DNA of 20,555 bases from Candidatus Nanohaloarchaea archaeon (GTDB lineage: Archaea; Nanohalarchaeota; Nanosalinia; Nanosalinales; Nanosalinaceae): the NCBI GenBank assembly GCA_046497485.1, contig JAWOFP010000048.1:1-20555 (forward strand). The letters run 5' to 3'. The position numbers and the translations under genes were made by a program. Shown here piece after piece: positions 1-20,555 of the stretch. The notes below the pieces were generated by a model. That model ran no database searches. It was not told where the DNA came from and saw nothing but the letters and a program-made list of their open reading frames with translations. The number at the start of each line of letters is the position of its first letter. Position 1 is the stretch's first letter.

Positions 1-921
1 AATGAGGGAAGCCGTTACCTTGAATGGAACTTTGTAGATGTAAAGGAAGGAGTTCCTTACGGTGTAACAGGAAGGCTGAACAGCGGGAGCGATCAAGGAT
101 TTGATCTATCGAATTATGATGTTTACACATGTAACTGGGAGTATCAAACTGATTCAAGCGGAGCAGTCAATGTTTCAGGCGATGTCAGAGAATTACATGC
201 AATTTCAAGCGACTCAGGAACTTCCAATTTAAGCATTGCGGACTGGTCCGCAGCAACCAGTATTGACCCTGAATTTGCTAGAGTTCCCTCTCCACCAGTT
301 TCATTTGAAGAGGGAGTTGCAGCAAGCAGGACAATGGCTGAAGCAATGGGCTGGCTTGAAACTCCTCAAACCATCTTTGATAACATTGGAGACTCTGTTA
401 TACCAGAAGGTGATCCTTCAGGAAGTACAACATTTGATGTATTAGGGTATGAAGGAGATGGAAGCCTCGTTGAGATTGTAACTGATGATACCTATACTCC
501 TTTCTATGGAGATGAACAAGATGATAACTCATGTACCGCTATCAATCAATATGATAATCCGTACAGTAGTTATTCAGGTATCCCAGCATATTCAGATATT
601 GATCATGTGTATTCAGCTTCTCCTCCTAGCTCCGATTGGGGGCCAGATGATGATGGAGAAGAGCCTGAATGGGAATGTCCAGACTGGTTCAACGATGGCC
701 CTGGTATCAAAGGTGAGCCTGTAGAAGTGCCAACTGTAATAGACTTTATAGAACAAGATGGAGAAAGGCCTGATGCAGTAGAGTTTGGTGAAGAAGGTAA
801 TCCGATTGCGAACTTTATGGCAGCCTACAATGATCCTGGGAATGGAATGCTGAAACTAACTTACCAAGATCATCAAGAGCTAAATGAAAGCTTGAATGCC
901 TGGGAGAACAGAGCTAACTGA
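1..921 (+). CDS. Acidic hypothetical protein, 5'-truncated, possibly secreted or surface-located
   Basis: Frame 1 is open from base 1 (NEGSRYLEWNFVDVKEG...) through the track ORF 334..921 to TGA at 919-921. It is rich in D/E/S/T/G/P and sits beside other surface-protein genes. Confidence 0.75.
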   Translation, partial: NEGSRYLEWNFVDVKEGVPYGVTGRLNSGSDQGFDLSNYDVYTCNWEYQTDSSGAVNVSGDVRELHAISSDSGTSNLSIADWSAATSIDPEFARVPSPPVSFEEGVAASRTMAEAMGWLETPQTIFDNIGDSVIPEGDPSGSTTFDVLGYEGDGSLVEIVTDDTYTPFYGDEQDDNSCTAINQYDNPYSSYSGIPAYSDIDHVYSASPPSSDWGPDDDGEEPEWECPDWFNDGPGIKGEPVEVPTVIDFIEQDGERPDAVEFGEEGNPIANFMAAYNDPGNGMLKLTYQDHQELNESLNAWENRAN

Positions 922-980
922 GAAAAAAAGGGGGTTAGAGTACAAGTAAAAACACCTTCTTTTCCTAATTTATTCCTTTT
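922..980. terminator. Probable bidirectional oligo-T terminator region between convergent genes
   Basis: An A-run just after 921 gives a U-tract on the minus strand. CTTCTTTTCC...CCTTTTTT gives U-tracts on the plus strand. The region lies between two convergent stop codons. Confidence 0.45.
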
Positions 981-2450
981 TTAATTCAGGCCTACTATTT
1001 CTTCAATCTCATTTCTTCCTGCTGGTTCTGCTGTTTCAACTACTCTGTCATACAAGTTGGTTCCAAGGTTTTCATCTTGGACATATGCTAGAGTTGCATC
1101 TTCTAATGATTCATCTTCATCTATGTATACTGCTATCCTTCCGTTATCTGAGACGCTAGGTAAATCCTCATTATTTTCAGGATTTCTAGCCTCAAATGAT
1201 GTAGCTTGATCTGTAGCTAAAGCCAGTTCAGCCACAGCAGAAGCAATATTGCTGACTGATTCTACATCACCTTCCTCAAATATCTGGTTAGAGGCCTCTT
1301 CAAGGAAATAGTCGTTCATTACATAGTTGGTGTTTGCAGTGTTTGCTTGTTCCGCCATGCTCATGATTGAGGCCTGTGTTCCTAAAGTCTTACTACTAGC
1401 ATTCTCATCATCGATACCATCAACATAACCCGGCTCAAATCCAAATATAGTTGATCTAGCATATTTACTGTTACTTATATTAGTTAATCTGTTAACTACT
1501 GGTTCATCTAGGCCTTCCGATACTTTGGTAGGTCTTTGTATATACACTGTTTCAGTTTCGGCGTCTAGTTGTATTATTCTGTCTTGTGAGTTTTCAGGAT
1601 TACTTACATTCATGGTCTTTAACCTGTTATCATCAATCTCATCGTTAACTCTTCGAGCTATTTCTGATGTTGTAAATCCTACTTCAGGTCCGCTTTGAGT
1701 AGTTCCGGGACTTCTTTTACCATCGATATCTGAAGCTATGTTTCCAGCTCTTGTTAATATTGTCTCCATCTGTTGATCTGGATTTAGGGAAGCTATTTCA
1801 TTGAAGGCCTCAGAGTATTCAGGATTACTCTTATCATAGTCCCAGGCAAATTCGTCATTAACGTAGTTTAGGTGTGCCTCTCGGGCTTCATCCCCGTCTA
1901 GGTCATGTTGTGCGAAAGCCCAGGGCGTTTCAAAGTTTGAGGCCTGTTCTCCTTCTACTCTCCTATCTATCGGGAATGCTGAAGGAGTTTGTGTTACGAA
2001 GCTAGCATTGTATTCTTCCCCATTAATTGTTGCTGTGAGTTCAGTATCTCCATGCGGAAGCAATTCTTGCGGAAGGTATAGGACTGCGTTATCATCTTCA
2101 ACTTCTAAATCACTTGAGGAAGCTTCATGACTACTTTCTTGGATACCGTTTGTTAACTGTAGAAGTATATCTGCGTTGAGTTCAGCAGTGTCTTGAGTAA
2201 AGTATACTTCATGGTTGCCTGGCTCGCTGTTCGCTGGATCTTTTTCAGAGAGGTTTGCATCGACAACTTCCTTCAAACCAGTTTCTAAATCTTCATCACT
2301 GTTGCCGTCTTCTGATGGATCTAGGTTATCGTCGTTTCCAGTCTCATACCCTTCATTATCTCTTTGGCATCCTGCTAGGCCGGCGGTTGCTCCTGCTCCT
2401 AGTGCTGTGAGCAGTTGTCTTCTATTCATATTGCCTGATCTTTCTGCCAT
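981..2450 (-). CDS. Tat-exported lipoprotein, paralog A, function unknown
   Basis: N-terminus MNRRQLLTALGAGATAGLAGC has a twin-arginine motif, an h-region and a LAGC lipobox. The mature part is acidic. An SD-like GAGGT lies upstream. Confidence 0.85.
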   Translation of the reverse strand: MAERSGNMNRRQLLTALGAGATAGLAGCQRDNEGYETGNDDNLDPSEDGNSDEDLETGLKEVVDANLSEKDPANSEPGNHEVYFTQDTAELNADILLQLTNGIQESSHEASSSDLEVEDDNAVLYLPQELLPHGDTELTATINGEEYNASFVTQTPSAFPIDRRVEGEQASNFETPWAFAQHDLDGDEAREAHLNYVNDEFAWDYDKSNPEYSEAFNEIASLNPDQQMETILTRAGNIASDIDGKRSPGTTQSGPEVGFTTSEIARRVNDEIDDNRLKTMNVSNPENSQDRIIQLDAETETVYIQRPTKVSEGLDEPVVNRLTNISNSKYARSTIFGFEPGYVDGIDDENASSKTLGTQASIMSMAEQANTANTNYVMNDYFLEEASNQIFEEGDVESVSNIASAVAELALATDQATSFEARNPENNEDLPSVSDNGRIAVYIDEDESLEDATLAYVQDENLGTNLYDRVVETAEPAGRNEIEEIVGLN

Positions 2451-2474
2451 TTATCTATCTTACCTCTTGATTAT

Positions 2475-3935
2475 TTAATTTAATCCTGCTATTTGTTCCA
2501 GTTCTGACTTACTTGTTGGTTCAGAGTCAGTTGTTATATTATCGTATACCGCTCCATTATCTGTAACAAACATAGTCATGTCTTCCAAGTTATCGCCAGG
2601 ATCTGCGGCCAGGCCTACATACATTGCATTTTGTAGACTTTCACCTACTTCGTAAAGAGGCTCTCCATTAATGTCATGGTTCACCATCTCTTCAACTCTG
2701 TTTAGGGAAGCCAGTGTATCAAATGCTTCTTGTGTATCTCCGTCTCCGAATAAATGTTCTTGTGAAATTATCTCAATAGCATAGTCATTTATTGGCTTTG
2801 TGCTAGATAGCGCAGGAGTAGTTGTGACTGCAGAGTTCAGAGAGTTAATTGCGTTCTCTGATTTTCTTTCATAATCAATACCTTCAATCTCTCCAGGCTC
2901 AAACCCATAAATCATGGCAGGATTTATCTTGTCTCCTTCAATCACTTTAAACTGTTCTTCCATAGGCCTTGATGTACCACTAGTACCCTGCCATATTAAT
3001 TCATCTGATTCTGGGTTGTAGTGAATTATTTCGTCTAGGCTATTTTCTGGGCTTGAAGCAACAATTGTCTTCAAATCTGTATCATGTATGTCTCTGATTA
3101 TTTGGGCTGCGCCATGACCTATTTCTTCTCCGCTCTGTGTCGTTCCTGTTGTTGGTGTATTAGGGACATCGTGTTCCATGTCCGACGCTATATCTCCAGC
3201 AATTTCTAGTATATCAAGCATTTCTGTACTTGGATCCATTTGTTCTATCTGTGCTATTCTATCGTCATAGTCACTCCCTAATCCATGAGTCCCATCATAT
3301 AATGATCCATCTGCTATTGGTTCTCTAACAATTTTGTTGTTAAGATAGTTGTGGTGTGCCTGAATGGCTTCTTCCGTGTCTAAGTCTTGTTGTGCAAAAC
3401 CCCATTCTGTTTGAAAACTTGAGGCCTGTTCTCCTTCTATGCTTCTATCTATTGGGAATGCTTGCGGAGTCTGAGTATTTATTTCGGCTTGTAACGGACC
3501 TTCAATGTCTTCGTCATGAAATTCTACTGATAGTATGCTGTCTCCATGAGTGAATAATGTTTCTGGGAGATTTATTGCTGCTCTATTATCTAGCTTAGCG
3601 ATTTCATCTGCAGTAGTTTCGTATACTTGTTCTTGAACTCCATTGGTAACTTGGACGGTTACATCTCCTTCTAAGTCTGCTGTATCTCTAGTGAAACTTA
3701 ATCCATATGTGTCGCCTTCATGTCTATTCAAATCGACATTTGATAAATTAGGATTAGGGGCGTCAGTAATACCTATCTCTTGTGGCTTATCTTGGCTTCC
3801 ATTACTATTTGGATCATTAGTTTGATCATCTTTTGGCTCTAGTGCCTGGTTACATCCTGCTAAACTTCCTGTTACTCCTGCTCCTAATGCACCTAGAACC
3901 TGTCTTCTATTGAAACCATCTCCCATGTTATCCAC
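2475..3935 (-). CDS. Tat-exported lipoprotein, paralog B, function unknown
   Basis: N-terminus FNRRQVLGALGAGVTGSLAGC. It is colinear with 981..2450 (AFPIDR..EGEQAS, GTTQSG, GFEPG, C-terminal GLN) and separated from it by a 24-bp gap. Confidence 0.85.
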   Translation of the reverse strand: MDNMGDGFNRRQVLGALGAGVTGSLAGCNQALEPKDDQTNDPNSNGSQDKPQEIGITDAPNPNLSNVDLNRHEGDTYGLSFTRDTADLEGDVTVQVTNGVQEQVYETTADEIAKLDNRAAINLPETLFTHGDSILSVEFHDEDIEGPLQAEINTQTPQAFPIDRSIEGEQASSFQTEWGFAQQDLDTEEAIQAHHNYLNNKIVREPIADGSLYDGTHGLGSDYDDRIAQIEQMDPSTEMLDILEIAGDIASDMEHDVPNTPTTGTTQSGEEIGHGAAQIIRDIHDTDLKTIVASSPENSLDEIIHYNPESDELIWQGTSGTSRPMEEQFKVIEGDKINPAMIYGFEPGEIEGIDYERKSENAINSLNSAVTTTPALSSTKPINDYAIEIISQEHLFGDGDTQEAFDTLASLNRVEEMVNHDINGEPLYEVGESLQNAMYVGLAADPGDNLEDMTMFVTDNGAVYDNITTDSEPTSKSELEQIAGLN

Positions 3936-4043
3936 TATGTAATAACAACACAGTAATGCTTTTTATATCTTTCTATCAATAACTAGACCGATTTTCAGAT
4001 GGTTATGAAAGATTATTTAATCAGGCCTAGGTAATTCTATGAT
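3936..4043. promoter_or_regulatory. Divergent promoter region with TATA-like boxes
   Basis: TATAAAA on the minus strand (~3960-3967) is about 28 nt before the 3935 start. TTATTTAA (~4013-4020) is about 27 nt before the 4044 start. This spacing is typical of leaderless archaeal transcripts. Confidence 0.45.
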
Positions 4044-7000
4044 ATGTATAGGAAGGCAGGTTCTATTCTACTTTTAGCTTTTCTAGCTTTACTGACTTTT
4101 TCTTTCTATGCTTCAACTTACGAGTCTTCTACTGGTGACGGAGGTTTTGGGGACGGTTCTGGCGGAGATAGTGGAGACGGCGGGCCTGGCGGAGGAAATT
4201 CTGAGGCTCCTGAAGCAGATTTTACTTGGACTCCAGATCCTCCTGAGGAAGGAGAGTCTGTCTCATTCCAAGATCAATCAAGTGAAGGAGCAAGCAGTAT
4301 AACGAATTATGAATGGGCATTTGAGGACCATGGAACCAGTTCAGGATCAACCAGTTCTGTAACATTTTCAGATGGTGGAAGCTATCAAGTAACTCTCAAG
4401 GTGACAGATGATAACGGTGAGAGTGATACTGCGGTGAAAACTGTCAATGTTGAACATGATAATAGTGACGATGATGATCCGGGGGATGATGATTATCCTA
4501 TAGAATGTCATGCACGAATAGGTGGAAGTCTTGTGGACAGCGATCAAGACGGTGATACAGGCCTTGATGATACTGGTTGTGTGGCTCCGTTGCCTGAAGA
4601 CGATGTTGAAGGAGCTATATGGGAGAACCATATTTCCAGTACGATAACTGGAGACCCTACCTCAGGTACAGGTAATGCTGGAAGGCCTCAGTTCTATATG
4701 TCTAACTCTGCTACGATTCAAGGAAATGATCTAGATAATACAGTTAATGAAGATACCTATGATGATTCAGGTACTTATCCTGAAGCAGATATTTATTATG
4801 CAGACTATGAAGGAAGTGAAGGAGGTTCAAGAGAAGACTGGGGTTTCGGAATTCTAGAAGACACAACCTTTGATACATTCCCTGCTGAAGCAACAGTCCA
4901 TAATGATAGAATAGTTCTTCCACCTCACAACCTTGATGGCGGTATGTGTGGGGATGGAATAGAGAATACTGGAGATTCTACTGATCCAAAGGGAGATGAT
5001 GACTCAAGTTCTCCTCCAGATTCAAACACTGAGGGATATGATACTGATTGTCGGGCTGATTGGGGTAGGCGGTGGGAAAGATACGATGTATCCAGTAGAG
5101 GCTCAAAACAGCCTGGTGAACCTGGAGAGCAGTCAGGTTTTGAGACTGAAGATAATGAGATTAAATGTAGAGATGACAACATGGATTCTGAAGGAAATAA
5201 CTTAGATCTATCATGCGATGACGGTAAAGATGCAAGTTGTTCTGATGGAGATAGTTCATGTCCTTGTGGAGGAGCTACAGGAAGTGATGGAGATAATGCA
5301 ACTTGCGATTCTGCTGAGGATTGGAGCGAGGACGAAGGAAAAAGTTACTGGTACGAAAGCTCAGGTACTTTATACAAGGAAACTTGTGAAACGGATGGAA
5401 CTGAAACATATGCGTCAGGTTCTAGTGGCAGTGATAAATCTTGTACAAATTATGATGGGGTAGATCTTGGTACAGGGGAATGCCAGTCATGTGTAGATGA
5501 CGGAGATAGTGATTATTACGGAGGAGACTCAGATTCTGTTTCTGGCACAAATAGGGACTGGAAACAGGCAGATAGCCAAAACTGTGATACCCACAATACT
5601 GTAGATGGTGGAACTGATAGCCCTTATAGATATGCAAATAGTGACGCGGCAACTTATACTGATTTCACATCTTACTTTGACAGCGATTGGGGTTCAGAAG
5701 GAAGAGTGTGGTGCGGTTTCGATTATACAACTACTGTTGATGCAGACGGACCGCAAGGCCTAAGCGATGGATTTGTAGTTATAGAAGAAGGAGATATTGT
5801 TGCAACTGAAAACTTAGAAAGAAATGATGAAGTCGGAGATCATGTCTCTGTTGATGGTTCAAATATTGGGAATCAGGATACTTTCCTTAATCTAATTGAT
5901 ACTGGTTGTAACGGTAAAAGAACCTGTATGAAATATGTAAATTACTATTCTTACGACAGCGGTTACACTTTAAGCGATAATCCTTCTGCATCTGAAGTAG
6001 CAGGTTCAGCTGTTAGAGCTGATGAATCAAGAGCTTATACTGCTGATGAAAGCTATTCTGTCTGTAAGAATATCAACAGAATAAATGAAGAACACGGCGG
6101 CGGACATCCATTAATTGACTGTGACTATTCACAACCTCAGCCAAGCGGAGGGCATGCCGATATTTCCCCTCTACCTGAGGCCTGTGGAGATGATACTCAA
6201 GAACATGTAATGGTTTTTGATGGAAACGAGGTAGATCAGACAGTAGTTCAGGATTACCCTATTTACTATCAGGAATGTGTTTCATGGGACTCGGCCGACG
6301 ATGAAGGTTATTTCTACAGTGAACACGGTCAAAGCCTTGATTCAAATAGCTGTGCTATTCAAGGAGAGGCTGTAGCAGAAGGAACAGTTGCAAATGTTGC
6401 TTCTACAGGCAATATTGGAAATACTGTTATTGATGAATCATTTGAGGAAGGTTCAGATAGTCCTGACTGGGAAGTCTGCCTAAATATTGATCAAAGTAAC
6501 TCGAATACGCCATACAATCACAGGTATAATGATGCTTCAAACACGGCATTTGGAGGGCAGTGGTACGATCTTGATGATGAAGTAGTTAACGATTACTTGA
6601 GATCAAATGAAGGAAGATTAGGCCTTTCAACGGATCAGAGAGCAGGCTCTCCAAGATACATTGATTATTACTACGGTGAGAATCCTTCTCCTTATGATGC
6701 AGAATATAATCCTGAAGGCGGTCGAACAGGGACTTCTCTGGTAGCTGATTGTGGACCTCTTCTAGATGGCTGTGGAGAAAATCAAGGAGATATTAGAGGA
6801 GCTGTAAATGATAATGAGGGAACCTTCTTCGGTTTCTTTGAAGAAGATGCATGGGACGATGATGCTCATCCTCATGGAGGGCCTTCTAATGAAGGATATA
6901 CAGCGAGAATAGACTGGTTGTTCATTGGACACATGAACATGATTAAGAGCCTTCAGGACATTTCAGGGGACAGTCGTTACAACGGCCAGATTTCATCTGG

Positions 7001-8975
7001 GCATCCTGATTACGAAGATTTCAGCAGAGAATGGTATGAAAACACTATGATAGATGCAGATAACTCTGTGCTTTACTCATATACCCTGAATAATACCTGG
7101 GTTATTGACTCTACAGGAGCGCCATATCCAGCTTACTCAGTAGATCTCTCGAATGGAAATAATTACGAAGACAATGACAACATACTAGAGGAATCCGACA
7201 GATCTCTCGGAGTACATTACAATGTAGATTATACAGGAGACAGAAGAACCGGTCCTGACAGCAGTTTCGATGTTAAAACTGACAAAGCTATGGGTAACTC
7301 CTTGGCAGTACTATCCAACAATGCGATGAATGATGAGGAAGGTAATGAGATAGAGAGCGGTGAAGCTTTCTGGATCGATCCTGATGATATAAGATATCAT
7401 TTAGATGAAGGAAACCTGGCAAGATTAAATGGAGGAAGTCTCGAGCAGATTCCAGATAGTGACTGGAAGAATCTAGCAGGAATATTTGAAATAGATTTGA
7501 CCGGCCCAGACTCAGGTCTCGGATGGGATTATGGGAAGGACAGTTATCAATCAAGTGGAAGTTATGATCCTGATGATCCTGATTTCGGAGATGAAAGCCA
7601 TGTTGTATTTACCGAAATCGCTTGGGAGAATGATAGTTCCGGAGATGTAGTTGATCCGCTTGAACCGCCTATGTGTGGAGATGACAGCCGAGAATATCTG
7701 CTTGAAGAGCAAGGAGAAGCCGATAATACTGAACAGTTTACAGGTACTTATGTCTGTGCTACGACCCCAGACTATTGTGTATACGACAGGAATCTGTATG
7801 AATCTGGCGAATATGAGCAGGCTAACGAGCCTGGTGAAGAAGAAGGAAGACTGAAGCAGGACGAAGAAGTTTGTTCCCAAGATGACCAAATTCATGAGCA
7901 TCCTATCTGGTTCGATCAGGACTATGCCCAGTACAGGCCTGATGACGATACTCAAGAACTTTGTAATGCTAACAGTCTTTACGGGCCTGAAGGCCAGCAA
8001 TGGATAGATTACGATGAAATAAATAATAACCCTCACGCATTCACAGGAGGAATTGATGACTCATGGAGTGAGAGATTGGACCAAGGAAGTCATGCAAGTC
8101 TTGAATCCGATTATGAAGGAGAAGAGTGGACTAATCATCCTTTAGATGCAGGTTATACCCCAGTACAAACTGGGTTTGATAGTGATAGAGTGGCTGATCC
8201 AAGCGAGATAGGAATGGAGTATGGCTTCTGCGGCGGGGATGATACTTCAGAATACCTAATTCATCAGGATTCTCAGAGTGAATATGTGGAAACCGATCAG
8301 TCAATTCAGGGAGTTGCAGCAAGCCCTGATAGCTGTGTATTAGACAATTCAGAGTATTCAAATATTGATTCAGATGCATTGGACAAAGATCATTTCACTG
8401 AGGCCCAGCTTCAAGATGAAAGAATGCTGTACAATGAAGGAGACTCGGTAACGTTTGACTCAGGAGACACACGGAGAACTGTTGCATGTTACGGCGGACA
8501 ATGGTGGAGCTCCTGGCCTATAGTATTCATGGAGGATACAGCAACTGTAGATCTTGGTGAAACAGGATTCACATCTTTCAGAATCATTAATCCTGATCAA
8601 GAGTCAAAGACTTTCGAACTAGGAATTAATCCAAGAGGTTCAGGAGAAACAGCAGATGACTTAGACCAAATGGTCTCATTCGAAGATACGGGAACAAATG
8701 ATATGACAGTAACAGTTCCAGGCCAGAGCTCAAACACCTATAGACTTGAAATTCAGGCAAACAGAGAGATAAACACTTCTGGCGCATCAGGAACGGATAT
8801 TGAGGTATTTGCAGAGTCTTCAGATGGAAGTCTGGATGGTGAAGACCAAGTAGACATTGCTACTAGAGATCGGAACTCGGCGGGTTCAGGAGAATCGAGA
8901 ACTATTCCAGGCCTGACACTGTTACAGTTAGCAGTGATTGCAGCGGTCTCTAGCTTGATATTTTTCAGAAATTAA
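4044..8975 (+). CDS. Large acidic cell-surface protein: signal peptide, Gly linker, PKD domain, Cys-rich region, CGDD repeats and a C-terminal PGF-CTERM-like anchor
   Basis: Hydrophobic N-terminus; PKD-like segment PEADFTWTP...YEWAF...GSYQVTLKVTDDNGESD (~4209-4451); about 34 Cys; C-terminus TIPGLTLLQLAVIAAVSSLIFFRN. Confidence 0.85.
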   Translation: MYRKAGSILLLAFLALLTFSFYASTYESSTGDGGFGDGSGGDSGDGGPGGGNSEAPEADFTWTPDPPEEGESVSFQDQSSEGASSITNYEWAFEDHGTSSGSTSSVTFSDGGSYQVTLKVTDDNGESDTAVKTVNVEHDNSDDDDPGDDDYPIECHARIGGSLVDSDQDGDTGLDDTGCVAPLPEDDVEGAIWENHISSTITGDPTSGTGNAGRPQFYMSNSATIQGNDLDNTVNEDTYDDSGTYPEADIYYADYEGSEGGSREDWGFGILEDTTFDTFPAEATVHNDRIVLPPHNLDGGMCGDGIENTGDSTDPKGDDDSSSPPDSNTEGYDTDCRADWGRRWERYDVSSRGSKQPGEPGEQSGFETEDNEIKCRDDNMDSEGNNLDLSCDDGKDASCSDGDSSCPCGGATGSDGDNATCDSAEDWSEDEGKSYWYESSGTLYKETCETDGTETYASGSSGSDKSCTNYDGVDLGTGECQSCVDDGDSDYYGGDSDSVSGTNRDWKQADSQNCDTHNTVDGGTDSPYRYANSDAATYTDFTSYFDSDWGSEGRVWCGFDYTTTVDADGPQGLSDGFVVIEEGDIVATENLERNDEVGDHVSVDGSNIGNQDTFLNLIDTGCNGKRTCMKYVNYYSYDSGYTLSDNPSASEVAGSAVRADESRAYTADESYSVCKNINRINEEHGGGHPLIDCDYSQPQPSGGHADISPLPEACGDDTQEHVMVFDGNEVDQTVVQDYPIYYQECVSWDSADDEGYFYSEHGQSLDSNSCAIQGEAVAEGTVANVASTGNIGNTVIDESFEEGSDSPDWEVCLNIDQSNSNTPYNHRYNDASNTAFGGQWYDLDDEVVNDYLRSNEGRLGLSTDQRAGSPRYIDYYYGENPSPYDAEYNPEGGRTGTSLVADCGPLLDGCGENQGDIRGAVNDNEGTFFGFFEEDAWDDDAHPHGGPSNEGYTARIDWLFIGHMNMIKSLQDISGDSRYNGQISSGHPDYEDFSREWYENTMIDADNSVLYSYTLNNTWVIDSTGAPYPAYSVDLSNGNNYEDNDNILEESDRSLGVHYNVDYTGDRRTGPDSSFDVKTDKAMGNSLAVLSNNAMNDEEGNEIESGEAFWIDPDDIRYHLDEGNLARLNGGSLEQIPDSDWKNLAGIFEIDLTGPDSGLGWDYGKDSYQSSGSYDPDDPDFGDESHVVFTEIAWENDSSGDVVDPLEPPMCGDDSREYLLEEQGEADNTEQFTGTYVCATTPDYCVYDRNLYESGEYEQANEPGEEEGRLKQDEEVCSQDDQIHEHPIWFDQDYAQYRPDDDTQELCNANSLYGPEGQQWIDYDEINNNPHAFTGGIDDSWSERLDQGSHASLESDYEGEEWTNHPLDAGYTPVQTGFDSDRVADPSEIGMEYGFCGGDDTSEYLIHQDSQSEYVETDQSIQGVAASPDSCVLDNSEYSNIDSDALDKDHFTEAQLQDERMLYNEGDSVTFDSGDTRRTVACYGGQWWSSWPIVFMEDTATVDLGETGFTSFRIINPDQESKTFELGINPRGSGETADDLDQMVSFEDTGTNDMTVTVPGQSSNTYRLEIQANREINTSGASGTDIEVFAESSDGSLDGEDQVDIATRDRNSAGSGESRTIPGLTLLQLAVIAAVSSLIFFRN

Positions 8976-8990: not shown

Positions 8991-9119
8991 TTAGAGGTTG
9001 AATAGACCTTTCTCTTTTTCTACATTGGTTGTTCCGTGAACTCTTTTTGCGTGTTTCTCTACTGTTTCTTCTTTTGAGAATACTTCGCCGCATTCTGTGC
9101 ATTCTAGGACTTCTGCCAT
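8991..9119 (-). CDS. C2H2 zinc-finger microprotein, 42 aa, not in the ORF track
   Basis: ATG at 9119 to TAA at 8991 translates as MAEVLECTECGEVFSKEETVEKHAKRVHGTTNVEKEKGLFNL. This has exact C-x2-C-x3-F-x8-H-x4-H spacing and fits the gap between its neighbours without overlap. Confidence 0.85.
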   Translation of the reverse strand: MAEVLECTECGEVFSKEETVEKHAKRVHGTTNVEKEKGLFNL

Positions 9120-9171
9120 AATCTGTGTTATGTATAAAATCCTTAAAACAATTCACTTCTCTAAAGAGTTT
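9120..9171. promoter_or_regulatory. Compact divergent promoter for the zinc-finger gene and proS
   Basis: 52-bp AT-rich gap. TTAAAA/TTTTAA at 9143-9148 is roughly equidistant (~26-27 nt) from both start codons. Confidence 0.4.
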
Positions 9172-10686
9172 ATGAGTCAGGAACTCGGGATTACGGTCGA
9201 TAAGCATCAGGATACTTCAGAATGGTATACACAGGTAGTACAGAAAGCAGGCCTTGCAGATTATGCGCCTGTAAAGGGTTGTATGGTGATTAAGCCCTAT
9301 GGCATGAAGCTGTGGGAATCGATCAAGGAAGACTTTAATGATAAGATTACTTCGACGGGTGTGGACAATGCTTACTTCCCGCTATTCATCCCTGAGTCCT
9401 ATCTTGAAAAAGAAGAGGATATAGTTGAAGGATTTGACCCGGAAGTTGCCTGGGTCACCCATGGCGGTGAGGAAGAGTTAGAGGAACGACTTGCTGTAAG
9501 GCCTACCTCCGAGTCTATAATCGCACCTTTCATGAGTGATTGGATCCGCAGCCACCGCGATCTACCGCTTAGATTAAATCAATGGGCCAATGTAGTCAGG
9601 TGGGAAGCGACCGATACTAGGCCTTTCCTCAGAACCAGAGAATTTCTCTGGCAGGAAGGACACACAGCACATGCAACAGAAGAAGAAGCAGATAAAGAGA
9701 CAATGCTGAGACTTGAACAGTACCAGGAAGTAATTGAAGACCATTTAGCTATACCAAGTATTTTGGGTTACAAGCCGGAACACGACAAGTTCCCTGGCGC
9801 AAAATATACTACAACAATCGAAACCTTGATGCCTGACGGAAAAAGCATTCAGTCAGGAACCTCTCATCAGCTTGGGCAGCATTTTGCCGAGGCCTTCGAC
9901 ATAAAGTTTGAAGATGAAGAATCCGAAGAACAGACAGCTTGGACCACAAGCTGGGGTCTCTCAACTAGAACAATCGGAGCATTAATCATGGCGCATGGAG
10001 ACGACGATGGACTAAGATTGCCGCCAGAAGTTGCTCCAACACAGATAGTAGTCGTCCCAATATTCCAAGAAGATAACCAAGAAGAAGTTATGGATTACGC
10101 AGAAGAAGTAGTTGAAGGCCTAGAAAATAGCTCTGGATGCGGCTGTGAGAGCTGCAGCTGCGGCTCAGATCTGCGTGTCAAGTTAGACGATCGGGAACAT
10201 AGAACGCCTGGCTACAAATTCAATGAATGGGAGCTGAAAGGAGTCCCGCTCAGAGTAGAGATAGGTCCTAACGAAGTAGAAGACGAAGCAGTTACAACCG
10301 TTAGAAGGGACAATGGGGAAAAAGAAATGGGGGTCGATAGAGAAGAATTCATTGATTCAGCAGAAGAAATTCTGGACGACATTCAGGCCTCAATGTATAA
10401 TGAGTTGGAAGAGTACTTGCAGGAAAATATTAGAGAAGCAAGCTCCAAGAATGATATTCTTTCAACTATTGGAAAGAATAGAGGCTATGTCAAGACCAAA
10501 TGGTGCGGAAAAGAAGAATGCGAGGAAGAAATCAAAGACCAGGTCTCAGCAGAAATTGTAGTCCTACCGTTCCAGGAAGACTCTAAACCAGCAACAATCC
10601 AGGCCTTAGAAGAAGAGATAGAAGGAGAATGCGCAGTCTGCGGACAAAAAGCAGAGAGATGGGCCTATTTCGCAAAGAATTACTGA
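9172..10686 (+). CDS. proS: Proline--tRNA ligase, archaeal/eukaryotic type
   Basis: Motifs SEWYTQVV, YFPLFIP, RPTSE, QWANVVRWE..TRPFLRTREFLWQEGHTAH, TSWGLSTR, HGDDDGLRLPP, PGYKFNEWELKGVP, the C-terminal Zn cysteines and terminal FAKNY. The ATG at 9172 (MSQELGIT) is preferred over 9097. Confidence 0.97.
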   Translation: MSQELGITVDKHQDTSEWYTQVVQKAGLADYAPVKGCMVIKPYGMKLWESIKEDFNDKITSTGVDNAYFPLFIPESYLEKEEDIVEGFDPEVAWVTHGGEEELEERLAVRPTSESIIAPFMSDWIRSHRDLPLRLNQWANVVRWEATDTRPFLRTREFLWQEGHTAHATEEEADKETMLRLEQYQEVIEDHLAIPSILGYKPEHDKFPGAKYTTTIETLMPDGKSIQSGTSHQLGQHFAEAFDIKFEDEESEEQTAWTTSWGLSTRTIGALIMAHGDDDGLRLPPEVAPTQIVVVPIFQEDNQEEVMDYAEEVVEGLENSSGCGCESCSCGSDLRVKLDDREHRTPGYKFNEWELKGVPLRVEIGPNEVEDEAVTTVRRDNGEKEMGVDREEFIDSAEEILDDIQASMYNELEEYLQENIREASSKNDILSTIGKNRGYVKTKWCGKEECEEEIKDQVSAEIVVLPFQEDSKPATIQALEEEIEGECAVCGQKAERWAYFAKNY

Positions 10687-10770: not shown

Positions 10771-11541
10771 ATGCAGTCACGATTTTATGATGTTGCTGAG
10801 GCAGGTTCAGAACTTGCGTATCAAGGCAATAATCAGGATTTACCTTTTGAGTTCTATGAAGAACTTGTAAGGGAAAATGATATTGAATCAAATAGTAGAT
10901 TGAGAGATACAAAAATTGATAATGTTGTTTTAGACTTAAGCACAGCACTTAGTGGTTACCTTAACCATTCTTGGTCTTCAGAATTTGATGTCGGAAGCGA
11001 TAGAGTATATGAAACATTAGATAGGGTATTTGGCTCTGATCTTGGACTCCACTGGGAACCAAGCGGAGAAGATTTTACTGAAGGAACATTTCATGATAAA
11101 ATAAATCCTAGAGAAATTTTTCAAAGTATAGCTCAGCTTTCCGATACAGCTGACATTTATTACCCTGATCATTTACAGGATGGATTAAAGGCAGCTAAAA
11201 ATAATCATTTATCAAATCTTAAAACCCAAGGTTTTAGCTCTTACCAAGAATTTGTTGCCAAGAAAGATGATTACAACAAATTTTGTTCACAGATTATCAC
11301 TGCATTAAATGAAGAAGCAATAGAACTTCATGCAATGAGAGATGCTGGAATGTACGAAGAAGCAAGTAACGGATACGACCATAATAGCTTCAATAGCCTG
11401 AGCTTCACTGAAGATGATGTTATTATAGATGCAGCAGCAGAATTAGATGGAAATACCGCAATTGCAACATTTGATAAAGACTTCATAAAATCTGATCTTG
11501 CAGCATTTCCGCCTCATTTAATTTCACAAATATGGAAATAA
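10771..11541 (+). CDS. Putative PIN-domain nuclease
   Basis: N-terminal VVLDLS and C-terminal SLSFTEDDVIIDAA...AIATFDKDF resemble the acidic PIN-fold motifs. The gene is AT-rich. Confidence 0.6.
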   Translation: MQSRFYDVAEAGSELAYQGNNQDLPFEFYEELVRENDIESNSRLRDTKIDNVVLDLSTALSGYLNHSWSSEFDVGSDRVYETLDRVFGSDLGLHWEPSGEDFTEGTFHDKINPREIFQSIAQLSDTADIYYPDHLQDGLKAAKNNHLSNLKTQGFSSYQEFVAKKDDYNKFCSQIITALNEEAIELHAMRDAGMYEEASNGYDHNSFNSLSFTEDDVIIDAAAELDGNTAIATFDKDFIKSDLAAFPPHLISQIWK

Positions 11542-11562: not shown

Positions 11563-12834
11563 ATGATACTCAAAAACATTCGATATTTAGTCACTCAGAA
11601 CTCTGAGAGACAGATTTTGGAGAACATTGATTTGCAGATTCAAGAGGATAAGATTTCAGGCCTTGGCAGGAATCTTTCTACTGAAGGACATGAAGTAATT
11701 GATTGCAGTGATAAGGTTGTGATGCCTGGATTGGTTAATGCGCATACTCATGCTGCAATGACTTTGCTTAGAGGAATATCTGATAACAAAGAGTTACAGG
11801 CCTGGCTTGAGGAGGATATCTTCCCTGCAGAAGAAAAAATGGGTCCTAAGGAAGTTTACATTGGATCTCTCTTGGGCTGCGTGGAGATGCTTGAATCCGG
11901 TACAACTACTTTCAATGACATGTATGCTGAAATGGATGAAGTCGGTAGAGCCATTGATAGAACGGGTATAAGAGCTGTTCTCGGTAGAGGCCTTATGGAT
12001 ATGGACGATCGAAAGGATGAGAGAATGGATGATGCACTGGAGTTAATCAAGAGATTTGAAGATCATGATAGAATCAAAACAAATATTGCTCCGCACTCGA
12101 TCTACACTGCTTCTGAACAGCTTTTGAAAGAATCAAAGGAGGCCTCTGAAATTCTCGGGAAAAAGCTGCATACCCATGTCTCTGAAACGGAAAAGGAAAA
12201 CAGTGATTCAATGGATGAGAGAGGCCTTACTCCTGTCCAGTATTTGGATGAATTAGATCTTGTGAATGAGGATTTGATAGCGGCTCACTGCGTTCATTTG
12301 AAGGAAAGAGATAAAGAAATATTAAATGGTAAAAATGCAAGCATTGTTCACAATCCTTCCGCTAACCTAAAGCTTGGTTCTGGGATGGCTGACATACCTG
12401 AACTAGTTGACAGAGATATTAATGTAGCACTGGGCACGGATGGAGTGGCGTCAAACAATAATCTTAATTTATTTGAGGAAATGAAGATCGCTTCTATACT
12501 TCATAAGAGGAAAAGCCCGGAAAACATCACTGAGCGACAGGTTCTTGATATGGCTACGATTAATGGTGCAAAAGCTTTAGGCCTGGAAGATGAAATCGGT
12601 TCAATTGAGATAGATAAGAAAGCCGACTTGATAACTATTAATCTCAACAGGCCTGAAATGAATCCGGTTCACGGGAAGAGAGGAATAATATCTAACCTGG
12701 TTTATTCTTTCAGCGGGGATGTTGATGAGGTTATAGTTAATGGCGAACTAGTTTTAGATAAAGGAAGAATATTGGGTATTGAGGCCTCAGATTTATCTGA
12801 TTCTGTGAATAAATTAGGCGGAAGGATTAGATAG
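11563..12834 (+). CDS. mtaD: Amidohydrolase, 5'-methylthioadenosine/S-adenosylhomocysteine deaminase-like
   Basis: Motifs MPGLVNAHTH, APHSIYT, HTHVSET, AAHCVHL, HNPSANLKLGSG, ALGTDGVASNN and MATINGAKALG. Confidence 0.85.
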   Translation: MILKNIRYLVTQNSERQILENIDLQIQEDKISGLGRNLSTEGHEVIDCSDKVVMPGLVNAHTHAAMTLLRGISDNKELQAWLEEDIFPAEEKMGPKEVYIGSLLGCVEMLESGTTTFNDMYAEMDEVGRAIDRTGIRAVLGRGLMDMDDRKDERMDDALELIKRFEDHDRIKTNIAPHSIYTASEQLLKESKEASEILGKKLHTHVSETEKENSDSMDERGLTPVQYLDELDLVNEDLIAAHCVHLKERDKEILNGKNASIVHNPSANLKLGSGMADIPELVDRDINVALGTDGVASNNNLNLFEEMKIASILHKRKSPENITERQVLDMATINGAKALGLEDEIGSIEIDKKADLITINLNRPEMNPVHGKRGIISNLVYSFSGDVDEVIVNGELVLDKGRILGIEASDLSDSVNKLGGRIR

Positions 12835-15269: not shown

Positions 15270-15294
15270 CTATTTCTATTTTAGTTTTCATGAA

Positions 15295-16597: not shown

Positions 16598-17236
16598 ATG
16601 GATAATAAAGAAGATGATAAGGTAGAAGAGTTCAAAACAGGGACTACAACAGTCGCATTAACAACAGAAAACGGTGTAATTCTTGCAGCAGATAGAAGAG
16701 CCTCAATGGGGCATTTAACTGCTTCAAAATACGCCAAAAAGATTTACAAATTGGACGACAATCTAGGCCTGACAATTGCAGGAAGCGTTGGAGACGCCCA
16801 AAGAATCGTTCGAATGATGCGATCCCAGTTAAAGCTTCACAGACTGGAGACAAAAGAACTTTCAGTCAAAGGCGCAGGAACACTTCTATCAAACATTTTA
16901 CACAGCAGTAAAATGATGCCTTACATGAACCAATTCATCCTTGGAGGCCTAGACGACGGAGAAGGAGTACTTTACGACTTGGATCCGGCAGGAGGCCTAA
17001 TGGAGCACAGATACTTTACAGCTACAGGTTCAGGAAGCCAGATGGCATACGGAGTCCTTGAAGACCATTACGAAGAAGGAATGGACCATGAAGAAGGTAA
17101 AGACCTTGCTCAGAGAGCCGTCAAATCCGCTATGGAGAGAGACACCGCATCCGGAAACGGAATCATGGTAGCTGAAATCACAGAAGATGGATTCAACATA
17201 GTTGAAGAAATGGAAGCAAAACAGGTAATGGAGTAG
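16598..17236 (+). CDS. psmB: Proteasome subunit beta
   Basis: Propeptide ending KTG followed by catalytic TTT; AADRRASMG, TIAGSVGDAQ, ATGSGS..AYGVLE and ERDTASGNG. Confidence 0.97.
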   Translation: MDNKEDDKVEEFKTGTTTVALTTENGVILAADRRASMGHLTASKYAKKIYKLDDNLGLTIAGSVGDAQRIVRMMRSQLKLHRLETKELSVKGAGTLLSNILHSSKMMPYMNQFILGGLDDGEGVLYDLDPAGGLMEHRYFTATGSGSQMAYGVLEDHYEEGMDHEEGKDLAQRAVKSAMERDTASGNGIMVAEITEDGFNIVEEMEAKQVME

Positions 17237-17293
17237 GCCTGTCACATAAACTACTCTTTATCTAATTATAATCAGAGGTTTTAATTCTTGACA

Positions 17294-20200
17294 ATGGAAG
17301 AACTAGACGATGTAGAAAGCATGCTGCCACCAGGAGCAAATATCTCAGATATACGCTTCGAGGCATCAGACATAGTACTATACACAGACAGCAAGGACTT
17401 TTTCCTTGACAACAGCGAGACAGTGAGAGAGCTAGTCTCAAAACTGAAAAAAAGGATAGAGGTAAGGCCTACATCAAAACTATTCAAAACTCCTGAAACT
17501 GCCGAAGAAAAAATTGAAGAAGCAGTGCCGGAAGAAGCAGAGTTAGAAGATACCATCTTCCAGCCAAGCCTCGGAAAAGTTATAATTAGAGTAAAAAGGC
17601 CTTCAAAACTGAAAAATGCAGAAGACAAAATTAAAGAAGAGGCCTTATGGAGCCCACAGTTCGAAAGAGTTCCAGCTATCGACTCGAAAATTGTAGATAA
17701 AGCCCGTGAACTAACAGTTGAAGACCCAGAGTTCAGAAAAGATTTCCTACACGACGTAGGAAAGAAAATCAGGCTAGATAAAAGCGTTGGAGATGAATGG
17801 ATCAGGATTTCAAGTCTCGGAGGCTTCAGACAAGTCGGAAGATCATGCGTACTCGTCCAAACAGAAGAATCAAATGTATTAATGGACGCAGGAATCAGTC
17901 CTGGCGCAGAACCAGGATCTCCAGAAAACTACCCTTACTTGAATGCCCCAGAGTTGAATCTTCAGGATCTTGACGCAGTCGTGCTTTCACACGCACACAT
18001 GGACCACTGCCTAACACCAGAAACACCTGTAACAATGGCGGACGGTACAAGAAAACCTATCGCACAAGTAGAAAAAGGCGAGAAATTAAAGACTGTGAAC
18101 TGGGAAACTGGAGAAGTAGAAGAAGGGAAATGTACAGGCACTAAGGAAGTAAAGGATGAAGAATATCTTGAGATAGAGACTAACTTCAATAACATCAAAG
18201 CTTCAGAAGATCATAAATTCTTCAAATTTGAAGAGTTAGAGGTTAAAGAAGTCAAAGCAGAAAAACTTGAACAAGGAGACTTAATCCCAAGAAAATCTGT
18301 GCAAAGACCTAAAACTAAGAATATAGAACTTGAAGAACCCGAGTTTAGCGAAAGAATAAGCTTGACAGAAAAGGCCAAATCAGAGCTTATTGAGAAACGC
18401 CAAGAGAAAGGCCTATCGCAGAGAAAGGCATCTAAGAACGCAGATAAAGGAATCAATTTTGTAAATGATTTAGAAAACAAATATGACTCGGTTTACAAAG
18501 AAAATCTAGAATCACTCCTTAATCTATATAATATCGATAGTAAACAGTTTTTCATAGATAATGATGTAGAAAAAACGGTTTACCCCGAAAATCTGAACAG
18601 TAAATTAGCACAATTTATAGGCTACTTCTATGGAGACGGGCATAGAGATGTAAATAGATTAAGATTGACAGATAAAAACCGAGAATGCCTTAAAGAATAC
18701 AACGATTTGGTTGAATCGTTATTTAACTACAGAGGGAATATCAGAAATCATCCTGACCGTAGTAAGGAAGCCTATACTCTAGAAATTAACAACGTTGGGA
18801 TAGTCAAATTTTTAGAGGATAACTTTGAAGGAATTTATCTTAACTCCTCAGAAGGCACTATACCCTCAGAAATTAAGAGAACAACTCATTCGAACATGAA
18901 ATCATTTATCAGAGGCCTGTTTGATGCTGAAGGAGATATAGGAAACATAATCAGGATCTCCCAAAGCAGTAGTGAAGTACGAAAAGAGATTCAAAACTTG
19001 CTCTCATCAATAGGTATTAAGGCTTCTAATTCTGACAAAGATATCAGAGTCTCAATTTCACAGAATGTCGAGATTAAGAAGTTTATTGAAAAAGTAGGAT
19101 CATCTCACCCTGTAAAGAAAGAGAAACAAGAAAGATTGTTAGAATTGATAGAAGACTCCAATTCTAGAGAGTTAATGCCGGTTAGATCTGAAGATCTCCA
19201 CAGGATATTGGAGGAAGCAGGAATGACTGGTCGTGTTGGAGGAAGCCCTAACTACAAGAACTTAGAAACATGTCTTGTGGACTGGTATAGGAGAGATTCA
19301 GATAGTTTGGCAGGTAAAGAAACTGTAAAGACTTTGATTCAAACTTTAGAAGAAAGAGTTACTGAGTTAAAATCAAAAGAATCCGATAATATTCCTGAAG
19401 CCAGGAAGTCTATCTCTGTAACTAGAGAAACTGTTGTCAATTCTACATCAAGTAGTATGGATCACGTCCAATTGATTGAAGATAAAGGGAAACCGATAGC
19501 GGTCCAAGAAGAAGTATCAGAATATCTAGAAACCCAGATAGAGTCAGCTATTACAGATACCCTAGAAAATATTGAATCATTGAAAAAATTGCTTTCTATG
19601 GATGTTGAATGGCATCAGATAAATAACATAGAAAAAGAAAATAACGAATACGGATATTTAGTGGATATCAGAGTTGATCCACATCATAACTTCATTGCAA
19701 ACGATCAAGTAGTTCACAACTGCGGAATGATTCCTTACCTATACAAAATGGGTTATGATGGCCCGCTTTACTGCACAAAGCCTACCCGTGACATGATGAT
19801 CATGCTATGCCTGGACTACATAGGCCTAGCGCATTCAGAGAATAACACGGCGCCTTACGATTCTTCAGCAATCAAGAAAGCAGTGAAGAGAACAATTACA
19901 CCGGACTATGGAGAGGTAACAGATATCACTCCTGATATGAGATTAACACTGAAGAATTCTGGTCATATTATCGGTAGTGCTTTAACTCATCTTCATGTTG
20001 GGGAAGGCCTCCATAATATCCTGTACACAGGAGACTACAACTATGATACTACAGAAACTCTTCGTCAAGCGGATACAGATTTCCAGAGAGTTGAGACAAT
20101 GATCACAGAATCTACCTATGGCGGTAGAGACGATAAGCAGACGCCTAGAGAGGAAGCTAACAAGAAGTTCCTTTCAAAGGTTAAACAGACATTGAGCAAG

Positions 20201-20555
20201 GGCGGAAAAGTTATTGTACCTGTTTTCGCAGTAGGCCGCTCACAGGAGGTTCTTGCTTTGCTCGCTGATGAGATGGATCGAAGCTACTTTGATTACAATG
20301 TCTATGTCGATGGAATGATCAATGACGCAAACGCTTTGCACACAGCTTACCCCGAGTTTCTTTCAAAGAAGATTCAGAACAAAGTAATCCGGAAGAACTC
20401 GCCGTTCCTCAAAGAAAATATCAAGGCGATCGGCAGCTACAATGAGAGACAAGAAGTCTACGATGACGATGCATGTATCATCCTAACTACTTCAGGATCG
20501 ATTACAGGAGGTCCAATTATGTCATACTTGAAGAGAGAGGCCTCAGAACCTGAAA
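17294..20555 (+). CDS. fttA: aCPSF1/FttA beta-CASP ribonuclease (transcription termination factor), intein-containing, 3'-truncated
   Basis: Open frame from ATG 17294 to the window end. It has an N-terminal KH region, LGGFRQVGRSC, LMDAG, SHAHMDH-[intein]-CG, SGHIIGS, YTGDY, ESTYGG, VPVFAVGRSQE and TTSG. The psmB-aCPSF1 adjacency is a known conserved archaeal gene pair. Confidence 0.95.
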   Translation, partial: MEELDDVESMLPPGANISDIRFEASDIVLYTDSKDFFLDNSETVRELVSKLKKRIEVRPTSKLFKTPETAEEKIEEAVPEEAELEDTIFQPSLGKVIIRVKRPSKLKNAEDKIKEEALWSPQFERVPAIDSKIVDKARELTVEDPEFRKDFLHDVGKKIRLDKSVGDEWIRISSLGGFRQVGRSCVLVQTEESNVLMDAGISPGAEPGSPENYPYLNAPELNLQDLDAVVLSHAHMDHCLTPETPVTMADGTRKPIAQVEKGEKLKTVNWETGEVEEGKCTGTKEVKDEEYLEIETNFNNIKASEDHKFFKFEELEVKEVKAEKLEQGDLIPRKSVQRPKTKNIELEEPEFSERISLTEKAKSELIEKRQEKGLSQRKASKNADKGINFVNDLENKYDSVYKENLESLLNLYNIDSKQFFIDNDVEKTVYPENLNSKLAQFIGYFYGDGHRDVNRLRLTDKNRECLKEYNDLVESLFNYRGNIRNHPDRSKEAYTLEINNVGIVKFLEDNFEGIYLNSSEGTIPSEIKRTTHSNMKSFIRGLFDAEGDIGNIIRISQSSSEVRKEIQNLLSSIGIKASNSDKDIRVSISQNVEIKKFIEKVGSSHPVKKEKQERLLELIEDSNSRELMPVRSEDLHRILEEAGMTGRVGGSPNYKNLETCLVDWYRRDSDSLAGKETVKTLIQTLEERVTELKSKESDNIPEARKSISVTRETVVNSTSSSMDHVQLIEDKGKPIAVQEEVSEYLETQIESAITDTLENIESLKKLLSMDVEWHQINNIEKENNEYGYLVDIRVDPHHNFIANDQVVHNCGMIPYLYKMGYDGPLYCTKPTRDMMIMLCLDYIGLAHSENNTAPYDSSAIKKAVKRTITPDYGEVTDITPDMRLTLKNSGHIIGSALTHLHVGEGLHNILYTGDYNYDTTETLRQADTDFQRVETMITESTYGGRDDKQTPREEANKKFLSKVKQTLSKGGKVIVPVFAVGRSQEVLALLADEMDRSYFDYNVYVDGMINDANALHTAYPEFLSKKIQNKVIRKNSPFLKENIKAIGSYNERQEVYDDDACIILTTSGSITGGPIMSYLKREASEPE
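18008..19720 (+). mobile_element. Intein of 571 aa with a LAGLIDADG homing endonuclease and HTH domain(s)
   Basis: Block A CLTPETPVTMADG; block B IKASEDHKFF; LAGLIDADG blocks LAQFIGYFYGDG (18605-18640) and FIRGLFDAEG (18905-18934); blocks F/G LVDIRVDPHHNFIANDQVVHN followed by +1 Cys. Removing it restores HAHMDHCGMIPYL. Confidence 0.95.

Follow-up and report, generated by a model that had tools for sequence, protein, structure and literature searches.

AGGCCT as a genome-wide iterated palindrome in a nanohaloarchaeon, and its possible build-up by motif-directed strand choice in mismatch resolution

Introduction

The contig JAWOFP010000048.1 of a Candidatus Nanohaloarchaea archaeon (assembly GCA_046497485.1), whose whole stretch of 20,555 nucleotides is referred to below as the window, raises the question of why one short palindrome, AGGCCT, recurs in its genes and between them, and what puts or keeps it there. 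Iterated palindromes of cyanobacteria are described in PMC4390886 and PMC5861425, namely HIP1, GCGATCGC, and such alternates as GGCGCC, GCsGC and rCCGGy, and the latter source gives for Synechococcus PCC 6312 the palindrome CAGGCCTG, which includes AGGCCT. The origin and upkeep of HIP1 have been debated for three decades, according to PMC13756078. A literature search found no paper on AGGCCT iteration in nanohaloarchaea.

Abundance and coding context of AGGCCT

The initial annotation had estimated about 59 copies at an approximately 20-fold excess, with some 20-25 GGCC in other contexts. The recount agreed, giving 59 copies from 766 to 20543 (2.9 per kb) against 3.1 expected from the base composition (GC 40.6%), a 19-fold excess that falls to 13-fold on the stricter dinucleotide null (100 shuffles, mean 4.46, maximum 10), and 22 of the 81 GGCC lay outside the AGGCCT context. 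The features of the window are the following.

766..20543, no strand: 59 scattered AGGCCT, by sequence count
4023..4028, no strand: intergenic AGGCCT with divergent genes on either side
9097..10686, plus strand: open reading frame read as proS with 7 AGGCCT, phases 2/3/2, the name coming from the initial annotation and sequence motifs
10771..11541, plus strand: gene for 256 aa with no Pfam match in a Pfam scan and 0 AGGCCT by site count
11563..12834, plus strand: amidohydrolase gene with 8 AGGCCT, 6.3 per kb
16598..17236, plus strand: open reading frame with 3 AGGCCT by site count, presumably a proteasome beta subunit judging by sequence features; relatives retrieved with it bear the name Nanohaloarchaea
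17235..17240, no strand: AGGCCT overlapping the TAG stop codon that ends the gene before it
18014..19721, plus strand: LAGLIDADG intein in an FttA/beta-CASP gene

The copies reported in three phases of proS (9249, A-G-L; 9499, R-P; 9890, E-A-F), as well as those at 4023 between genes and at 17235 over a stop codon, were found in place. The intein holds 2 AGGCCT per 1.7 kb, against 6 in the remaining 1.6 kb of its open reading frame. The 256-aa gene is likely a recent, variable insertion, since one X1 contig skips 10684-11563.

The excess extends far beyond the window, with 3,249 copies on all 66 contigs of the genome at 1.8-5.8 per kb by contig (mean 3.4 per kb, about 1 per 300 bases) and an observed-to-expected ratio (O/E) of 15.5 under a masked order-2 model. 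No flanking preference was seen outside the six bases, and the HIP1 core CGATCG is at expectation (91 copies, O/E 0.9).

An excess produced by codon use, amino-acid preference or assembly would have some footing in the over-representation of Arg-Pro (O/E 1.63) and Gly-Leu (O/E 1.43), but this dipeptide excess is missing from the related genome G024 (0.77 and 1.01). Coding copies by phase number 534/993/1399 against 102/123/183 in within-gene synonymous shuffles (n=20), which keep the protein and the per-gene codon use and leave codon pairs free, so that each phase stands at 5-8 times the null, and non-coding DNA is just as rich (3.6 against 3.3 per kb). Moreover, AGGCCT is rich in 11 further assemblies, four of them single-contig, and an assembly artefact is therefore excluded; the artefactual reading is refuted on all these counts, with a residual probability that is negligible. 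Thus, AGGCCT is confirmed as a genome-wide, DNA-level, frame-independent iterated palindrome, and the proposal of a HIP1-like word in a nanohaloarchaeon, beyond codon or amino-acid bias, is supported.

Strand choice or selection for a binding protein

We infer that the force behind this accumulation is biased repair rather than selection, and give a probability of roughly 40% to AGGCCT having been built up by motif-directed strand choice in mismatch resolution. Faced with a mismatch or heteroduplex, a putative factor would retain the strand reading AGGCCT, and changes creating a site would be fixed and those breaking a site undone. The palindrome would be guarded against changes on either strand because both strands would be read, and a second site within about 100 bp would compete for the strand choice, with the local bias being lost; this proposed competition would account for the short-range exclusion described below. 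A close rival, possible though doubtful, is weak selection for sites bound by a protein that organises the chromosome or protects DNA, with a benefit that saturates once a neighbouring site lies some 50-100 bp away or closer, and with specificity relaxed to a pentamer in one genus.

AGGCCT fills 64-78% of the permitted coding positions, at a similar level whether genes are weakly or strongly conserved (0.69-0.76) and along their length (0.68-0.74), and 675 of 820 isolated permitted positions carry it, which is in keeping with strand choice. The same holds for the one-mismatch neighbours, which lie close to expectation (O/E 0.9-1.3; GGGCCT 2.1), although no transition/transversion pattern is seen among them, a point against biased repair. 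The amino-acid contexts permitting a site are about twice as frequent as in G024 (2.41/5.07/7.47 against 1.15/2.86/4.55 per 1,000 codons), which favours selection for a binding protein.

Spacing between sites

AGGCCT sites exclude each other, and the effect fades over about 100 bp. The pair density is 0.14-0.28 below 20 bp and rises smoothly to about 1 past 120 bp; of the pairs of permitted positions less than 20 bp apart, 20 of 199 carry a site at both, against 1,488 of 3,151 at 300-600 bp. Generic hairpin avoidance is rejected, as other GC-rich inverted 6-mers have no short-range dip (1.0-1.1). No step-like footprint was found in the spacing, nor any clear 10-bp helical signal among periods of 3-40 bp, the peaks at 10.1 and 10.8 bp being weak and no higher than others. 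The smooth rise and the flat control 6-mers argue for strand choice, and the missing footprint and phasing argue against a bound protein.

The pentamer version in one genus

In the genus of the genome G022 the unit is the pentamer AGGCC. The half-sites AGGCC[ACG] are enriched in G022 at O/E 1.8-4.1, besides 5.8 for the palindrome and 0.7-1.6 for other GGCC, and AGGCCA is raised in all three genomes of the genus. At distances within 60 bp, the filling of half-sites drops to 0.65 of the baseline for opposite-facing pairs and to 0.85 for same-facing ones (ratio 0.76, p ~0.006, from this one genome and with pairs taken as independent), and both this orientation effect and the half-site enrichment are what strand choice would give. 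However, same-facing half-sites below 20 bp also exclude each other (0.54), an effect that goes beyond what strand choice by itself would give and that, as an exclusion in both orientations, suits selection for a binding protein. A toy equilibrium returned 7.1/2.4/1.0 under a pentamer rule and 15.6/1.0 under a hexamer rule, in agreement with the proposal, but its leak term is free and was set so as to fit, and the same numbers result if each strand brings a selective benefit that multiplies. In a replichore test of the Chi/KOPS type, half-site orientation in G022 varied with the local AT skew, with no two-arm pattern and a weak GC skew.

Distribution, conservation and decay among relatives

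The comparison with related nanohaloarchaea and their orthologues, as proposed in the initial annotation, showed AGGCCT to be rich in 12 of the 50 genomes of the family and to be gained or lost within genera. The gains and losses cannot be ordered, because the RpoA' tree covers 30 of the 50 genomes and is poorly resolved at its base. That close relatives repeatedly lack the word speaks against selection for a binding protein, while its retention between genera, 415 of 1,582 sites (26%) against G022 orthologues and 7.8% for control palindromes, speaks for it. Closer pairs, at 74-88% nucleotide identity, keep 60 of 89 sites, and yet the divergence around shared sites is not reduced (0.18-0.19 within 40 bp, 0.16 far away), which is consistent with biased repair; lowered mutation next to AGGCCT was not seen, closer pairs being flat and fourfold sites saturated between genera (0.35-0.39). 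AGGCCT is more often present in G022 where G000 also has it (0.67 against 0.47), a hint of position-specific effects that counts against biased repair. None of the 40 read differences listed, out of 1,222, fell within AGGCCT, where 0.7 would be expected, and this comparison therefore carries no information.

The sister genome G004 looks, from its sequence, like a decayed state, with an occupancy of 0.18-0.34, a predominance of one-mismatch forms and AGACCT at O/E 1.8, a pattern that fits strand choice. Foreign-looking regions are poorer, such as a provirus-like stretch of contig C59 (10 AGGCCT over 8.3 kb, compared with 89 over 25.9 kb) and a 13-kb gap in G022; no relative of the provirus helicase was found among viral contigs. 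These regions might suggest a self-tag role for AGGCCT in the exchange of DNA between cells, at uptake or at the start of recombination, with spread by molecular drive, but all the rival readings would lead to poor islands too.

Uptake, methylation and repair factors

The uptake tag raised in the initial annotation lost ground since ComEC and DprA were each found in 0/5 genomes (controls 10/14 and 11/14). DNA fragments taken up by cells are kilobases long, and the exclusion stops at about 100 bp. A role as self tag is thus quite unlikely, despite the precedent that HIP1 raises transformation (10.1101/2024.09.10.611283) and tracks uptake proteins (PMC13756078), as these sources put it.

An orphan methyltransferase coupled to methylation-directed or Vsr-type repair, as proposed for the cyanobacterial palindromes, is very improbable as the creator of AGGCCT, and the methyltransferase link suggested earlier was not upheld. 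The search of three families did find one C5 methylase (PF00145) here, but in only this one of the 10 rich genomes examined; PF01555 was above cut-off in 1/10 and PF02086 in 0/12, so that no methylase of the three families is common to the rich genomes. The C5 enzyme resembles M.HaeIII in its N-terminal part only and adjoins a McrB-like gene, and a weak PF01555 match is, as we take it from the sequence, a THUMP-type tRNA methylase. G024, with a full-length M.HaeIII homologue (E 3.4e-95), avoids GGCC (O/E 0.35). AGGTCT and AGACCT are undepleted (O/E 1.1-1.2), contrary to T:G repair. In favour, the succession from half-site to palindrome is reminiscent of the ratchet in two rounds described by Elhai (PMC4390886). 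Among the other options of the initial annotation, biased repair fitted best, though with neither methylation nor MutS, and a role as a binding site is a possible alternative.

MutS (PF00488) was found in 0/5 genomes (control 11/14), and NucS is in 46/50 genomes, rich or not; both weigh against biased repair. The mycobacterial NucS patch is given as 6-9 nt in PMC11551744, well under the 100-bp range, and NucS, MutS, ComEC and DprA were all set aside as having no link to AGGCCT. Four small DNA-related candidates that came out of a genome subtraction, winged-helix (5/5), second Orc1 (5/5), AbrB-like (3/5) and ParB-like (4/5), also occur in poor genomes, which argues against their serving as the bound protein, and a candidate of 85 aa is in 2/12 rich and 7/38 other genomes. 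The subtraction, covering 960 of 1,047 kb of G022 and 800 of 973 kb of G024, gave about 100 rows, 6 of which were tested across genomes and 21 Pfam-scanned; this partial coverage, and the lack of a factor among the candidates tested, also weigh against biased repair.

An ADP-ribosyltransferase-fold candidate

The remaining candidate, a gene for 146 aa at G000:C17:11966-12406, is a lead only. It is present in 7/12 rich against 0/38 other genomes of the family (5/10 against 0/36 once the four genomes from which it was chosen are set aside; the carriers are kin and not independent) and in 0/58 other genomes of the order, a distribution that the five other candidates do not have. It occupies the same locus in four genera and is cleanly absent from the intact locus of the decayed G004. 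However, it was not found in the single-contig genomes G005 and G010 (about 4 sites per kb), whose locus holds other genes, and the 9 metagenome contigs carrying it differ widely, with 1.7-4.6 sites per kb on 4 of them, 1.0 on another and 0-0.52 on the remaining 4.

The predicted model (pLDDT 85.4) belongs to the ADP-ribosyltransferase (ART) fold, with Tpt1 (Z 10.2, rmsd 2.6, 104 aligned) and DarT/DarT1 (Z 8.0-8.2) as best folds and ART-fold chains as all top structural matches, the best Foldseek E being 1.2e-3. Like Tpt1/KptA and DarT, most homologues conserve a His close to the N-terminus as well as the motif A-x-x-Y-A; unlike them, the candidate has 146 aa, about 10-18% identity and no Pfam match. 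Neither PADLOC nor an alignment against PDB sequences gave a match, and no relatives were seen among viral contigs. ESM Atlas returned hypothetical clusters at 0.93 and one cluster with PARP in 16%, and there are 8 representatives in 1.84 billion proteins. That this protein marks AGGCCT DNA or nick ends there, as the putative specificity factor of strand choice, is unlikely on these data.

Comparison with known systems

Like HIP1 and its alternates, AGGCCT is short, palindromic and GC-rich, exceeds expectation at least 15-fold, occurs in every frame as well as in spacers, is better conserved than control palindromes and is patchy among kin. Unlike HIP1, it belongs to an archaeon and obligate symbiont, has no flanking preference past six bases and leaves the CGATCG core of GCGATCGC unenriched; unlike the HIPs in general, it has a pentamer version in one genus, and no cognate methylase was found for it among the three families nor MutS in five genomes. 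The DNA uptake sequences of Neisseriaceae and Pasteurellaceae are non-palindromic, of 9-12 bp, need competence genes, and occur in thousands of copies, in genes despite amino-acid changes and more evenly than by chance. AGGCCT is likewise in thousands, rewrites proteins and is evenly spaced beyond chance, but it is palindromic, and neither ComEC nor DprA was found in any of five genomes. As type II restriction-modification sites, GGCC is that of HaeIII and AGGCCT that of StuI; the letters are the same and an M.HaeIII homologue exists within the family, yet AGGCCT is enriched here and GGCC avoided where that homologue occurs.

In the sources named, most cyanobacterial symbionts lose HIP1 (Elhai, PMC4390886), HIP density is 0.5-2.5 per kb against 3.4 per kb for AGGCCT (PMC4390886, PMC5861425), and the exclusion range is 1 kb in Elhai's model against about 100 bp here (PMC4390886), a MutSL methyl-directed model from which the present case also departs in that MutS was found in none of five genomes. 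Xu et al. argue for selection on HIP1 and a role in the chromosome (PMC5861425), a precedent for selection on a binding site here.

Implications

AGGCCT is an independent archaeal case of the HIP type, in a genome of 1 Mb and without the methylases that are regarded as central to such palindromes. Sister genomes that have, lack or are losing it, together with a genus using five letters, make drive and selection testable from strain data, and the gene set is small, so that the factor should be findable. How archaea without MutS choose the strand in repair appears unsettled in the literature. A methylation-independent, word-reading strand discrimination that rewrites genome and proteome to about three quarters occupancy, with an ART-fold writer in most carriers, is an improbable combination; if true, this would be the first case among HIP-type systems to offer a candidate enzyme together with on/off pairs inside genera and a specificity variant found in nature.

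Abundance and coding context of AGGCCT

The hexamer AGGCCT occurs exactly 59 times in the 20,555 bases of the window, against 4.46 in dinucleotide shuffles and 3.1 computed from base composition. The initial annotation, which had counted about 59 and expected about 3, is thus confirmed, as are its estimate of 20-25 GGCC in other contexts (22 counted) and its example sites in proS, in a spacer and across a stop codon. The window corresponds to contig C36 in the 66-contig, 967,558-base genome G000, and since the 3,249 copies found genome-wide leave no contig without the motif, the enrichment is not confined to the window; the runner-up palindromic hexamer reaches 699 copies. When the sites were masked for model training, the ratio of observed to expected (O/E) in G000 was 15.5 for AGGCCT and 0.9-1.3 for the nine one-mismatch classes, with the exception of GGGCCT (2.1), and no base preference flanking the motif was found genome-wide. 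The iteration of AGGCCT is, accordingly, real and strong.

In the 1,045 ORFs of G000, called for this analysis, the motif was found 534, 993 and 1,399 times in the three codon phases, while synonymous shuffling leaves only 102, 123 and 183; the non-coding DNA is also rich (3.6 per kb), which bears out the earlier suggestion that codon or amino-acid bias alone does not account for the enrichment. The occupancy, i.e., the fraction of positions permitted by the amino acids that carry AGGCCT, was 78%, 65% and 64% by phase, independent of the location along the gene and of gene conservation (0.69-0.76; 0.55 in genes without an orthologue). Regions of mobile appearance have a lower density. The G000 proteins contain permitting contexts at about twice the frequency seen in those of G024, a genome poor in AGGCCT, and are thus shifted toward such contexts.

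The following genes and elements were recorded besides (window coordinates, unless a contig is named):
981-3935, tandem pair of genes of ~490 aa each, the N-termini reading as twin-arginine, lipoprotein-like; the first has no Pfam match
4044-8975, predicted surface protein of 1,643 aa, acidic and cysteine-rich, with 7 AGGCCT only (1.4 per kb)
10771-11541, 256-aa gene without AGGCCT and without a Pfam match, skipped by one contig of run X1
17288-20554, intein-containing FttA/beta-CASP gene; the intein, of the LAGLIDADG type, has an additional HTH match and fewer AGGCCT than its host gene
G000:C59:5253-13600, integrated element with a tyrosine integrase and a D5-like helicase (the latter also in G022, 52% identity), partially filled with AGGCCT (1.2 per kb)

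Spacing, conservation and a possible mechanism

AGGCCT pairs closer than 20 bp reach 0.14-0.28 of the expected density, those at 35-70 bp about 0.6, and those more than 120 bp apart 1; no comparable graded dip was seen in seven control hexamers, three of which have low first-bin counts, and other inverted 6-mers of equal GC content showed no depletion. In G022, a rich genome of another genus, the enriched unit is the pentamer AGGCC, with O/E of 1.8-4.1 for the half-sites, 5.8 for the palindrome and near 1 for the remaining GGCC, and each of the three genomes of this genus has elevated AGGCCA. The G022 half-sites less than 60 bp apart are filled to 0.65 of baseline when opposite-facing and to 0.85 when same-facing (p ~0.006 in this genome alone, pairs taken as independent), and same-facing ones below 20 bp are also depleted (0.54). 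The sites common to G000 and G022 amount to 415 of 1,582, versus 7.8% for controls, despite saturated fourfold sites. In five closer pairs of genomes, 60 of 89 sites were intact, and their flanks had no reduced divergence compared with distant DNA.

The motif may have been built up by a rule under which the DNA strand that spells it would be retained, to which a probability of about 0.4 is given: neutral one-mismatch neighbours, graded exclusion, flanks without protection, the ladder of half-sites and the effect of their orientation would all follow from it, and a toy equilibrium with one fitted leak term reproduces the patterns of G000 and G022. Weak multiplicative selection on a binding site, which we consider a close rival and only slightly less probable, leads to the same equilibrium, and the two are therefore not separable here.

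Methylases, repair genes and known palindromes

The suggested link to a DNA methyltransferase was not supported in the three families searched. The C5 methylase family PF00145 was found in G000 alone among 10 rich genomes examined, PF01555 above cut-off in one of 10, and PF02086 in none of 12, and G024, with a full-length M.HaeIII homologue (L051), avoids GGCC. The G000 methylase adjoins an McrB-like gene and resembles M.HaeIII in its N-terminal part only. On G000:C53 (L001), the methylase gene diverges from this AAA gene and from one that is probably McrC-like, the cluster being a mobile restriction island. C5 methylases are also present in G024 (L051) and G020 (L050), both with very few AGGCCT. 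MutS, ComEC and DprA were each found in none of five genomes, and NucS in 46 of 50; the mycobacterial NucS patch of 6-9 nt, as given in PMC11551744, makes NucS unlikely as the sole agent.

AGGCCT behaves like the highly iterated palindromes (HIP) of cyanobacteria (PMC4390886, PMC5861425) but differs from them on the methylase criterion; it is apparently an unpublished archaeal HIP variant, without a shared methylase among the families searched. The initial annotation knew of no description in halophilic DPANN archaea, and our literature search likewise found none of AGGCCT with HIP, nanohaloarchaea or DPANN, while oligomer or methylome tables in supplements could still mention it. The motif is absent from the main texts of PMC11001535, PMC10266531 and PMC10609329, and the word 'archaea' occurs 0 times in the available text of PMC5861425.

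Distribution among relatives and search for a factor

Among 50 genomes of the family, 12 are rich (1,481-4,489 AGGCCT), G004 has 762 and 37 have 55-892; outside the family, the counts in 24 genomes range from 30 to 500. In the RpoA' tree (30 of the 50 genomes), the richness is patchy, with two of six genomes rich in one genus and the rich G003 being sister to G004, and the order of gains and losses is not derivable from its base, which lacks resolution. G004, with raised permitting contexts, an occupancy of 0.18-0.34 and AGACCT/AGGTCT in excess, looks like a loss of AGGCCT under way. The AGGCCT/AGGCCA ratio is 2.1-3.2 in G013, G063, G067, G006 and G068, a mild excess that perhaps represents old remnants, and 1.0-1.9 in the remaining poor genomes.

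From the genes common to G000 and G022 (960 of 1,047 kb), those of G004 (815 kb) and G024 (800 of 973 kb) were subtracted, an approach blind to altered specificity of a universal protein, to genes in uncovered stretches and to genes absent from the G000 assembly. Only one of the six candidates tested tracked AGGCCT, namely a 146-aa protein (ART protein) with an ADP-ribosyltransferase fold, as in Tpt1 and DarT, predicted by a structure model. Its gene was found in 7 of the 12 rich genomes and in none of 58 others, and is cleanly missing from the intact locus of G004. The locus is filled by other genes in the single-contig rich genomes G005 and G010, and four of nine contigs with the gene have at most 0.52 AGGCCT per kb. 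The ART protein is, on present data, neither necessary nor sufficient for the richness, and its association with AGGCCT may be explained by shared ancestry. The locus is variable and lies beside a topoisomerase-type zinc-ribbon gene. The ART family (G000:C17:11966-12406; G022 copy, L086:12708-13148) is small, unannotated and found only in Nanosalinaceae among the genomes searched, and it is of interest independent of any link to AGGCCT.
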